Below, piece by piece: positions 20,501 through 23,500 of a DNA stretch of 64,000 nucleotides. Where the stretch lies: assembly GCF_058153355.1 (NCBI RefSeq), contig NZ_CM177019.1. One strand, 5' to 3'. Position numbers: made by a program. The stretch's first letter is position 1, and the number at the start of each line of letters is the position of its first letter.

Positions 20501-23500
20501 TTCTGGAAGGCGATATTAAAGGATGCTTTGAACACATTAGCCACGAGTGGCTGCTTGAAAATATTCCTATGGACAAGCAAATACTCCGTAATTGGTTGAA
20601 AGCCGGGATCATCGAAAAAAGCATATTCAGCAAAACTCTCTCGGGTACACCCCAGGGAGGAATCATATCTCCAGTTCTGGCAAACATGGCCCTGGATGGA
20701 CTGGAAAGACTGCTGCAAAATCGCTTTGGTCCGAAACGCTCAAAAACATTCAGGAAACATCAGGTTCACTTCGTCCGGTATGCTGATGATTTCATCATTT
20801 CCGGAAAGTCGAAAGAACTTCTGGAGGAGAATGTTCTTCCGTTGGTGAAATCATTTCTTGCAGAAAGAGGGCTGACGTTATCCGAAGAGAAAACGGTCAT
20901 CACTCACATTACTGACGGATTTGATTTCCTTGGGCAGCACGTCCGACGCTTCGGTAGAAAACTCATAATCAGACCAGCCAAGAAAAACGTTAAACAATTT
21001 CTTAGCAAGATCAGAGAGACTATTGAAGGTAACCGAACGGTTCCTGCATGGGTGCTAATAAATCTGCTTAATCCAATCATCACCGGGTGGGCAAACTATC
21101 ACCAACATGTAGCATCGGCAGAGACATTTAACTATGTCGACAACCAAATCTGGCGCAAAATCTGGCAGTGGTGCAGAAGGAGACATCCCGGCAAAGGCCG
21201 GAGATGGATCTTCCGAAAGTACCACACGACAATAAAAATGTGTCATGGTCGATTTTATGGAGTCGATCCGGAGGGTAGGAAATATGTTCTGTCCCGGGCC
21301 AGCGACATCCATATTAATCGCTATATAAAAATAAAGGGAACGGCAAATCCATATGATCCCGAGTGGGAAACATACTTCGAAAGAAGGCTGGACTACTCAT
21401 GGAAGAAATCCCAACAGGGGCAGAAAAGGATTCTCGCTATATGGAAAAGGCAAGGATCGCGCTGCCCTTTATGTGAGCAACCGATTAATCGCGATACAGG
21501 ATGGAATGTTCATCATTTGCTCAAGAAATCTCTTGGCGGTAGCGATGATGTGAGCAATTTAGTCCTACTCCATCCCAACTGCCATCGACAACTACATAGT
21601 AATGACGCTGGTCTCCCACAAGGTGGAGGCTTATAAAGGCTTGAGCGGTATGCGGGGAAACTCGCACGTACCGTTCTTAGGGGGCGGCGAGACAGTAATG
21701 AATCGCTGCTACCCGACATATCCATCAACACCACGTCAGGGTGAATATCGGCAAACAGGTGTAATGCTGTGCGCCCGTTGTTCGCACAATGTGTTTCGAA
21801 TCCTTGAAGTGCAAAAGCGGTGCTCAGCATACGGCGAACATTATCTTCATCATCCACAATAAGGATGCGATTAATAGCAGTCATACAGTCTGATTTCCCT
21901 GCGGGTTGATCGGTAAAATAAGCGTGAAGGTTGCGCCGTAGCCCGGCAAACTGGCGACGCGAATATCACCCTGATGGGCATTAATGATGCGTTGACTTAA
22001 CGCCAGACCAAGCCCGGTTCCTGAGGCTTTGGTAGTGAAAAAGGGATCGAAGATCTTTTTTTGCAGCGAGAGATCAATGCCACTGCCGTTGTCCTCTATC
22101 GAAATGGCCTGTTGTGAGTCGCTATACTGCCAGGTTCGAATGCGAATTTTCCCTCGTGCACTGATAGCCTGGACGGCATTGATCAGGATATTCAGTAGTA
22201 CCTGTTTGAGCAGTTCACGATCGGCGTTAATCGGGCTTAATTCATTATCCAGTTCGCTTATGAAGTCGACCCGCGCTTGTACGCCGGCGGTTTGTACCAG
22301 TACCAGAGTTTCTTCAACCAATGCATTGAGGCTGACTTGTTGCCATTGATTGTGGCGTGGGCGTGAAAATTCGAGCAATTGCTGAATAACTTTGTTAATT
22401 GAATCGATTTCTTTGAGTACTACGGACAGATATTCCTGATGTATTGGGTCACTGGTTTGTTGGCGCAAGATCTGTACATAACCACGAATAGCCGTTAACG
22501 GATTACGTACTTCATGCGCCACGCCAGCCATCAGCTCACCCAGTGTGGCGAGGCGTTCTGCTTGCGCCATGCGGCGCTGGGTTTCTTTGCGGGCAGTTAA
22601 ATCAGAGAAAATCACCAAAGCACCTATCATTTCACCGTGCGTGTTATGAATACGACTGGTAGTGACACTGAGTTCAATGGTGCGGTCACGGCCTGGAAAA
22701 CTGATCTCCAGCGCCACATGTTCGGTGCCATGTTCCAGCGTATCCAGTACTGGACTGTAGAACGGAGTATTGTCGAACAACATGGAGTAAGGCTGCCCTA
22801 CCAGTTCATGACGTTGATAGCCAGTGATGACTTCTGCTGCCGGGTTCATGGTGGTTACATCACCCTGGCGGTCAATGGCAATGACGCCATCGGCAGCGTT
22901 TTCAATAATCAGATCGTTAAGTGTTCGCGTTTCACGCAGTGCCTGGGCGAGGTTGTTGACACTCTGACTAATTTGCCCCATTTCACCGGGCAATTGTGGT
23001 AATCGAGTGGGAATATTTTGCGCCAGAGTCGCGAGACCATCGGTGATGATATCTATATTGGCGCTCAGGCGACGGGAGAAAAGGACAATCAACAGCAGGC
23101 TTATCAGCAAACCGGCGGTGAGCACAATGATAATCCTCACATCCATTTTCCAGGCCTGGCGGCGAATATCTTCGGTTAATTCATTGGCCCAGATATAACC
23201 GAGGATTTCACCATTACGCTCAATGGGGATCATTGAATTCAAAATATCGCCGCGCACCTGCCTGCCTGAATAAATCAAAGGAGTATTTGTACGCATGACT
23301 TCGCGACCAGGGTGATCTGCGGCAATAGTAACGCCCACATTATTCTGATACAGCGCTGAAGGCGCGTAAGTGATTATCGCATCCAGCGTTTTGTTGTAAT
23401 AACCAGCGCCTATGCCAGGAAAGGCGTGAGTGATATTTTCAGTAATGGGAGCAAGTTCTGCATTCAGTGCGTGGATTCGCTCCTCACGTGGTAAGTCGTT

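Follow-up and report, generated by a model that had tools for sequence, protein, structure and literature searches.

A structurally intact, apparently active group II intron of the IIB1/CL1 type in two identical copies in an Escherichia coli chromosome

The closest described relatives of the element considered here, a 2359-nt group II intron at positions 19359-21717 of a 64,000-nt stretch of Escherichia coli chromosome (contig NZ_CM177019.1, assembly GCF_058153355.1; the whole of that stretch is called the window), are introns that combine a ribozyme of class IIB1 with a protein of the chloroplast-like 1 (CL1) type. One of them, EcI5, is carried by plasmid pO157 of E. coli O157:H7 (NC_002128, 35666-38071), and elements with which it reads its DNA target have been defined experimentally: exon-binding site (EBS) 2a at U251 and EBS2 (ACCAG) at 253-257, with the pair between EBS2a and its intron-binding site (IBS2a) lying at position -14 of the 5' exon in IIB1 introns (Monachello et al. 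2021). A second IIB1/CL1 intron with an EBS2a-IBS2a pair, T.el4h (Th.e.I3) of Thermosynechococcus, has been solved by cryo-electron microscopy (6ME0 and 6MEC). EcKTE56.groEL, a IIB1 intron of E. coli described as 'specialized' (PMC12584367), is a retrotransposon that can colonise a site in the chromosome. The IIA intron Ll.LtrB, which is mitochondrial-like, and the class C (IIC) introns, which lack an endonuclease (En) domain and EBS2 and insert after a stem-loop, provide further points of reference.

The window, whose genes include atoS/atoC, micF, yejK and rplY, harbors the intron at two sites:

19359-21717, plus strand: intron copy 1, in atoC on the strand opposite to the gene (Rfam hits, GUGCG start, AC end)
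60722-63080, plus strand: intron copy 2, in the intergenic region between yejK and rplY, immediately 3' of a repetitive extragenic palindromic (REP) element and sense with yejK (Rfam group-II-D1D4-7 at 60774-60921, Intron_gpII at 63004-63080)

Copy 1 begins with GUGCG and ends with ...CGAC, in agreement with the general group II boundaries GUGYG and AY, and matches two Rfam models over their full length: group-II-D1D4-7 at 19411-19558 (1-151 of 151; 112.5 bits, threshold 34) and Intron_gpII at 21641-21717 (65.5 bits, threshold 40). A second pair of such hits lies 41,363 nt downstream of the first, and the two copies proved identical at 2359 of 2359 positions. When the 60 nt flanking copy 1 on either side were joined, the resulting 120 nt matched exactly within atoC of an intron-less E. 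coli (NZ_CP169399), and in the same genome the flanks of copy 2 directly adjoin between yejK and rplY; comparison of the joined flanks with intron-less E. coli revealed no target-site duplication at the junctions of either copy. Exact junctions without target duplication are the signature of reverse splicing rather than of transposase action, and a segmental duplication linking the two copies is excluded because their flanks are unrelated. The element at 19359-21717 is read here, with a probability of about 0.9, as a complete, structurally intact and apparently active mobile group II intron that couples a IIB1 ribozyme to a CL1-type protein.

Comparison with the described systems places the intron near EcI5, which it resembles in its matches to both Rfam models, in protein architecture, in being plasmid-borne in E. 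coli, in near-equal dimensions, and in the position-for-position alignment of EBS2a, EBS2 and the EBS1 hairpin. It differs from EcI5 in that the 5' ribozymes are only about 62% identical, in the base at EBS2a (U in EcI5, A here), in the pair formed by the terminal base and gamma (U and A in EcI5, C and G here), and in its other EBS sequences and so in its targets, which here are hok, REP tails and atoC; megablast returned no pO157-type match to this intron. T.el4h, compared by protein, is the best solved relative, including the thumb, DNA-binding and HNH regions, from a cyanobacterial host. In contrast to EcKTE56.groEL, which has a single dedicated target (the groEL stop codon), the intron occupies several sites. 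Ll.LtrB shares the general mechanism and the order of protein domains, but is much more distant, with a IIA ribozyme and a delta-delta' contact instead of EBS3-IBS3. Nucleotide identity of 77-100% and the same boundaries are shared with introns annotated 'ltrA' that reside in hok and with contig DAXYJU010000101.1; those lie sense in hok on plasmids or plasmid-like contigs, whereas the window copies are chromosomal, antisense in atoC and at a REP tail.

The intron is thus a typical IIB1/CL1 mobile element of a known kind, whose protein is already present in NCBI under a correct automatic name; annotation pipelines label the element 'group II intron reverse transcriptase/maturase'. Searches of the literature brought up neither an intron residing in hok nor one inserted in atoC. 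A plasmid intron reported in PMC6052338 was considered as a match and set aside, as it differs and lies downstream of ycjA.

Structure of the ribozyme and its protein

The fold of the ribozyme was modelled by aligning the 5' parts of 12 sequences, from which RNAalifold and pair counts gave a consensus that was projected onto the window. The relatives comprised close copies from plasmids (77-99.6% nucleotide identity) and eight distant introns (47-61% protein identity) from Acerihabitans, Enterobacter, Propionivibrio, Bartonella, Ktedonobacter, Rickettsia and an actinobacterial metagenome-assembled genome (MAG); individual relatives are referred to below by L numbers. The model and the encoded protein comprise the following features:

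19365-19754, plus strand: domain I (intron 7-396), with closing helices 7-10/393-396 and 14-26/378-390
19760-19816, plus strand: domain II, basal helix of 11 bp, 8 pairs with compensatory change
19817-19824, plus strand: J2/3, UAAAGGAG, in which gamma is G19821
19825-19908, plus strand: domain III, helix 467-473/544-550 and three inner hairpins, with covariation
19910-21641, plus strand: domain IV, basal helix GGUCUUUA (19910-19917) with UAAAGGCU (21634-21641), the open reading frame (ORF) lying in the loop
21643-21676, plus strand: domain V, GAGCGGUAUGCGGGGAAACUCGCACGUACCGUUC, 34 nt, with the AGC triad at 21644-21646, a GAAA tetraloop at 21657-21660, and the two-base bulge A21666-C21667 in canonical register
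21680-21714, plus strand: domain VI, helix with extensive compensatory changes and the bulged branch-point A21711, seventh base from the 3' end
19957-21636, plus strand: intron-encoded protein, 559 aa (562 aa if begun at ATG 19948), from Pfam, NCBIfam TIGR04416, 6ME0_C and identity to EcI5
20005-20250, plus strand: RVT_N (Pfam)
20293-20943, plus strand: RVT_1 (Pfam), with YADD at 20779-20790
20989-21222, plus strand: maturase (GIIM, X; Pfam)
21463-21600, plus strand: HNH (Pfam, E=8.5e-10)

For domains I-III the consensus contains 143 pairs, 94 of them with compensatory changes among the 12 relatives. Standard pairs were formed in 95.8% of the cells of this alignment, as against 77.5% in shuffled alignments (none of 500 shuffles equalled the observed value) and 34-43% when the partner was slid by 1-3 columns. 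Domains V-VI contribute a further 29 pairs, 19 of them compensatory. Within domain V, whose fold (z = -5.5) agrees with the Rfam alignment, 14 pairs are conserved or covary across the 12 relatives and the AGC triad is invariant; the bulged branch-point A is likewise kept in 12 of 12. The basal helix of domain IV, which contains the stop codon, shows compensatory changes in six relatives (L003, L007, L011, L012, L013 and L016) when the ORF is deleted from the alignment. Among the eight distant relatives, the D1D4-7 model matches all, and the domain V-VI model all except the truncated L014. The initial annotation had proposed that covariance models, a canonical fold, the triad, the bulged A and the YADD box be examined: the Rfam models match, domains I-VI fold with strong covariation, and no loss was found in domain V or in YADD. 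Its placement of domains V-VI within 21637-21717 is borne out by Rfam, fold and covariation; its 3' limit for domains I-III, placed within 19359-19893, was wrong, as these domains end at 19908.

Pairing of G19821 with the last intron base, C21717, is the gamma-gamma' contact, as judged by comparison: G is found in all ten relatives of known 3' end whose intron ends in C, and A accompanies a terminal U in both L015 and EcI5. Two helices suggested along the way were rejected. A 5' hairpin, GCGAC/GUCGU (intron 3-7 with 13-17), which appeared in the first alifold run, was replaced by the 7-10/393-396 helix with its compensatory changes, and an extension of domain III, AGGA/UCUU (intron 462-465 with 554-557), shows no compensatory change, competes with the domain IV basal helix, and would sequester gamma. 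Minimum-energy folds of the ORF-deleted RNA from one or eight sequences were only partly canonical and were superseded by the 12-sequence comparative model. In the relative from Ktedonobacter racemifer (L013), a second domain V-VI match at 796-894 overlaps the 5' end of a related intron (837 onward), which starts GUUGCG; the arrangement resembles a twintron, with one intron inserted into the 3' end of a second.

The encoded protein is intact in its motifs. YADD and the C-terminal endonuclease motif CxxC...HH...N...H are present, and no frameshift appears in the alignment to the T.el4h protein, whose structure (maturase/reverse transcriptase, 6ME0_C, by cryo-electron microscopy) is the closest solved one (E=2.4e-187, residues 15-551). 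The description of the protein as carrying reverse transcriptase (RT), maturase (X), DNA-binding (D) and HNH endonuclease (En) regions thus stands, on Pfam matches to RVT_N, RVT_1, GIIM and HNH and on the 6ME0_C alignment, which spans the DNA-binding region. The protein passes the NCBIfam equivalog model TIGR04416 for group II reverse transcriptase/maturase at 369 bits and is 53% identical to that of EcI5 over 552 aa, while LtrA, from Ll.LtrB (IIA), reaches only E=2.5e-39. By similarity rather than by phylogeny, this RT-X-D-En protein falls with the CL1 proteins of EcI5 and T.el4h, in the IIB1/CL1 lineage.

The start codon of the protein was narrowed to two candidates by homology and public annotation. 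The ATG of homologues aligns with ATG 19957, and the annotation of near-identical copies uses either 19957 or the in-frame ATG 19948; the exact 562-aa form (ATG 19948) is NCBI HFG3511611.1, and both the 559-aa and the 562-aa forms are found in a collection of 15 billion proteins. The mechanically assigned start, GTG 19894, was rejected: it lies inside domain III, its exact 580-aa product is absent from that collection, and homologues start elsewhere.

Exon-binding elements and chromosomal target sites

Alignment to EcI5 recovered the published U251, ACCAG 253-257 and A258 of that intron together with its target bases C-18, C-17, A-15 and A-14, and gave the following elements and, in the window, their targets:

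19607 and 19609-19613, plus strand: EBS2a (A) and EBS2 (CAGAG), in the multi-branch loop of subdomain ID, aligned with EcI5 U251 and ACCAG 253-257
19673-19678, plus strand: EBS1 (UCGUAG), intron 315-320, in the loop of helix 302-312/322-332
19712, plus strand: EBS3 (U354 of the intron), pairing with the first base of the 3' exon, A
19345-19358, plus strand: copy 1 target, with IBS2a T19345, IBS2 CTCTG 19346-19350, IBS1 ATGCGG 19353-19358 and IBS3 A21718
60708-60721, plus strand: copy 2 target (REP tail), with IBS2a T60708, IBS2 ATCTG 60709-60713, IBS1 CTACAA 60716-60721 and IBS3 A63081

EBS1 pairs with exon positions -6 to -1 and EBS2 with -13 to -9, and EBS1 covaries with the exon in close and distant relatives alike. 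In each relative the EBS1 and EBS2 columns complement that relative's 5' exon, although these exons are unrelated, and in distant relatives the EBS2a column does so as well; L010 and L015, for example, pair with theirs at 5/5 positions of EBS2, 5-6/6 of EBS1, and EBS2a. Among the close copies, those with TTATG in place of CTCTG in the hok exon have CAUGA or CAUAA in place of CAGAG as EBS2. The copies of Salmonella, Citrobacter and Enterobacter have CAUGA, CAUAA or CAUGC; three of these pair 5/5 with the TTATG of hok and L008 pairs 4/5. U19712 is taken as EBS3 because the corresponding base is Watson-Crick paired with the first base of the 3' exon in all ten aligned relatives (U-A, C-G or A-T) and in EcI5 (G-C), which amounts to four pair types. 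EBS2a, A19607, finds T at -14, a Watson-Crick partner, at all three chromosomal sites (the two in the window and the rsmC site described below), and Watson-Crick pairs occur at this position in L010, L012, L014, L015 and L016; at hok, the copies of Salmonella, Citrobacter and Enterobacter form a G-T wobble there, and the closest copies an A-A mismatch.

Two other candidates, UCGUAA at 19603-19608 for EBS1 and GCCA at 19619-19622 for EBS2, were rejected, since structure, alignment to EcI5 and covariation place these elements at 19673-19678 and 19609-19613; the conserved TGGC of the targets, from which both candidates arose, is a feature of hok and REP sequence and not of pairing. In the introns of two Rickettsia MAGs (L016 and L017), which start CUGCG instead of GUGCG, ORFs are shortened or frameshifted and D1D4-7 scores are weaker, and the EBS columns of L016, the one of the two so compared, do not pair with its own exons; these introns are probably decaying copies.

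The occupied sites were then ranked by a pairing score over 13 positions (EBS2a, EBS2, EBS1 and EBS3, a wobble counting 0.5), computed for each position on either strand of the window after removal of the introns. The sites of copies 1 and 2 tied for first place among 118,534 candidates, and with EBS1 and EBS2 alone both remained within the top 24. The copy 1 target pairs with EBS2a, with EBS2 at 5/5 positions, with EBS1 at 5/6 (two of them wobble), and with EBS3; that of copy 2 lies within a REP tail, ...CTTATCTGGCCTACAA, immediately before an A. An independent insertion was found in SRR31800506 (L018) downstream of rsmC, after the REP tail ...CTTATCTGGCCTACGA and again before an A; this site is the single best of 99,970 in 50 kb of the intron-less E. 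coli KE55, at 12/13. These three independent chromosomal insertions, of copies identical or nearly so and each placed exactly at a best-pairing site, are indirect evidence of insertion into new DNA. REP tails of the form ...CTTATCTGGCCTAC(G/A)A, with A following the junction, mimic the intron target (window 60680-60721; L018 1-12 and 2372-2440; L026 360-401), while the other REP tails of the window (26917, 38879, 38992 and 39105) score 10/13 and are unoccupied.

The two insertions in the window differ in their predicted consequences. In atoC, identified by its translation and by the annotated atoC of intron-less E. coli, copy 1 separates two parts:

18140-19358, minus strand: 3' part of atoC, starting inside codon 56 and separated by the intron from the start of the gene
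21718-21884, minus strand: 5' part of atoC, codons 1-55 and two bases of codon 56

The junction (19358/21718) splits codon 56, right after the codon for Asp55 (which we take to be the phospho-acceptor of AtoC), in the conserved response-regulator motif D-I-R-MPEMDG, and leaves a truncated frame of 123 aa (21513-21884) that runs into intron antisense sequence. Because an antisense copy cannot be spliced from the atoC mRNA, the gene would be inactivated, a natural example of an antisense intron insertion knocking out a regulator gene. Copy 2, in contrast, lies in sense orientation between the yejK stop and a shared terminator near 63125-63150, so that it can, by prediction, be co-transcribed with yejK and spliced.

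Plasmid relatives and origin of the copies

Full-length introns with the same boundaries and 77-99.6% identity reside in hok in E. coli, E. albertii, Salmonella, Citrobacter and Enterobacter, where, annotated as 'ltrA' (for example in CP057208, NZ_CP010124, NZ_CP117648 and CP074295), the plasmid copies lie in sense orientation in the last codons of the gene, after ...LAYE. The IncF plasmids concerned have it in their leading region, and the same position in hok is taken by four of five metagenomic hits. Contig DAXYJU010000101.1 of E. coli GCA_043012465.1 (L028, 1912-4244) is identical to the window copies over all 2333 nt available and is also in hok (after ...VTLAYE). This contig, which is plasmid-like and carries genes for SNase, Hha and DUF2726 beside the intron, ends within the intron; this points to several intron copies there and to a plasmid that may be the donor. 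Among 5426 complete E. coli genomes the intron is present in two, plasmid-borne in both and 97% identical; none has a chromosomal copy, and neither insertion of the window is shared. At the hok loci of L002, L003, L007, L008, L009 and L028, the intron lies in sense within the final codons of the gene for the Hok toxin, part of a type I toxin-antitoxin system, so that splicing would be needed there both to make the toxin and to restore the 3' fold-back element of hok mRNA.

The plasmid copies in hok, the identity of the two chromosomal copies, their precise junctions and their two best-pairing sites lead us to read the window copies as recent retrotranspositions from a hok-type plasmid copy into near-cognate chromosomal sites. 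By analogy with its family, the transcribed intron would fold into six domains and be spliced as a lariat, with the help of its own protein, through branch point A21711 and the active site in domain V. The lariat-protein particle would reverse-splice into DNA whose top strand pairs with EBS2a (A19607), EBS2 (CAGAG), EBS1 (UCGUAG) and EBS3 (U19712), and the inserted RNA would be reverse-transcribed by the protein from a primer provided by the HNH nick in the bottom strand or by a nascent lagging strand. GC skew is positive on the plus strand across the window, and the rsmC insertion lies likewise on the G-rich strand of its region, from which it follows that the RNA entered the template of the lagging strand in three of three cases. 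Such a bias has been reported for endonuclease-independent, fork-primed Ll.LtrB events, according to references given in the review PMC4424553.

Several points weigh against this interpretation. Activity is judged from intactness and from the identical copies, and the window does not include the donor plasmid. For the copies with 99.6-100% identity, the hok sites have A at -14, which mismatches EBS2a (A249 of the intron; the positions compared were 19345 and 60708 in the window, 2487 in L001 and 1898 in L028). EcI5 has been shown to need a strict Watson-Crick pair here, so the mismatch comes as a surprise; under the EcI5 rule hok would be a poor target, and the view of hok as the 'home site' therefore rests on occupancy and not on optimal pairing. 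The pairing score was built after both sites had been seen, a concern countered by the derivation of the EBS positions from homology to EcI5 and from distant relatives and by the independence of the rsmC site. Finally, three of three insertions in the lagging-strand template has a one-sided chance probability of 0.125, and a sample of three does not discriminate endonuclease-dependent from fork-primed reverse transcription.

It is conceivable, as a tentative extension of the retrotransposition reading that we consider on balance doubtful, that REP tails, which fit this EBS variant (EBS2 CAGAG, EBS1 UCGUAG, EBS2a A) as well as hok does, act as landing pads, and that the source strain is in a chromosomal burst of the plasmid-derived intron with a preference for the lagging-strand template. 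Offered for it are the occupation of both best sites in 59 kb, the above-noted lack of any chromosomal copy in the complete genomes, and the breaking of public short-read assemblies at intron ends. If copy number in the source genome is high, the strain would offer an exceptionally clear instance of an intron proliferating in E. coli, and the readable target rules would make the intron a candidate gene-targeting scaffold alongside EcI5. The value of the system lies in a plasmid-borne intron invading chromosomal sites that are predictable from four exon-binding elements alone, and in a natural example of REP-element tails that mimic a homing site.

Alternative readings and the surrounding region

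The initial annotation presented the intron as compact, with a ribozyme of only about 535 nt upstream of the ORF and 81 nt downstream, and thus as a possibly streamlined ribozyme that still carries a full mobility protein. The shorter length is what the mechanical ORF leaves upstream of GTG 19894, and the stop codon does lie inside the domain IV basal helix, only 6 nt from domain V. With the start codon moved out of domain III to those used by homologues and public annotation, however, the 5' non-ORF RNA measures 589 nt (ATG 19948) or 598 nt (ATG 19957). The 3' figure of 81 nt is confirmed by the position of the stop codon and comprises the final 5 nt of the basal helix of domain IV, J4/5, domain V, J5/6, domain VI and a 3-nt tail. 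These dimensions are close to those of EcI5 (2406 nt in total, 608 nt 5' and 73 nt 3') and of distant relatives in other phyla, with totals of 2188-2422 nt in five, 5' non-ORF lengths of 561-634 nt in six, and 3' lengths of 73-82 nt in five (in L015 the ORF runs 3 nt beyond the intron end, which puts it outside these positive lengths). They also agree with the textbook layout of ribozyme in the 'first ~600 bp and last ~100 bp' given in PMC4424553, and no domain is absent or shortened relative to the D1D4-7 model. The size of the intron is, by this comparison, normal for its family, and special compactness is very improbable.

That the copies are fossils rather than parts of a live element would be in keeping with the many bacterial group II introns that are fragmented or have disrupted ORFs, as PMC3522654 relates, and with the absence of an evident sense-strand transcription unit upstream of the atoC copy. 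An uninterrupted ORF with its YADD and HNH motifs, a canonical domain V, branch site and full set of EBS elements, zero differences over 2359 nt between two copies and a third identical over 2333 nt elsewhere, which imply very recent copying, and insertions shared with none of the complete genomes make an inactive relic unlikely. The position of both copy 2 and the rsmC insertion directly 3' of a REP palindrome recalls class C introns, which insert after terminator stem-loops (PMC4424553), and raises recognition of structure instead of pairing; but the RNA carries EBS2 and a domain I of the IIB1 type, its protein includes an HNH domain, no such hairpin adjoins the sites in atoC and hok, and what all the sites share is a (T/A)nTCTGnnCTACGA-like sequence, followed after the junction by A, that pairs with the EBS elements. 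A hairpin-seeking mode is accordingly even harder to credit. Spread of the copies at the DNA level, by duplication, recombination or a transposase, or their origin in an engineered targetron knockout, draws on the use of EcI5-type introns as programmable knockout tools and on the clean knockout of atoC. Against this stand the unrelated flanks and base-exact junctions without target duplication, and, for a targetron, the same natural EBS in both copies with imperfect pairing (retargeting would be expected to give a perfect match to one site), the retention in domain IV of the full ORF, which targetrons have deleted, wild relatives of 97-100% identity in plasmids and other samples, and the lack of vector scars, of a deleted ORF and of a retargeted EBS. 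An origin of this kind can be given almost no weight, and natural retromobility is retained as the explanation of the copies.

Two short ORFs overlap the 5' ribozyme:

19577-19954, minus strand: antisense ORF of 125 aa, not a gene
19626-19973, plus strand: sense ORF of 115 aa, not a gene

Neither has an NCBIfam family hit, both overlap structured RNA, and both are broken in relatives with an 87% identical ribozyme. The antisense ORF, already described as lacking coding features, contains stops or frameshifts in the Salmonella and Enterobacter copies and is interrupted in distant relatives as well.

Beyond the intron, a tandem array of four REP/BIME (bacterial interspersed mosaic element) units at 113-nt spacing occupies 38568-39130, with a second REP pair at 26728-26914; both match Rfam naRNA4. 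The segment at 59900-60721, which includes yejK, is at least 99% identical in only 13 of the 5426 complete E. coli genomes and 90-95% identical in 5378, while the atoC flank is 95-99% identical to most of them, a difference that points to a divergent or recombinant chromosomal stretch around yejK. Three further features are those expected for this region of E. coli:

30580-30673, minus strand: MicF small RNA
57322-57395, minus strand: tRNA gene
63472-63497, minus strand: L25 ribosomal-protein leader

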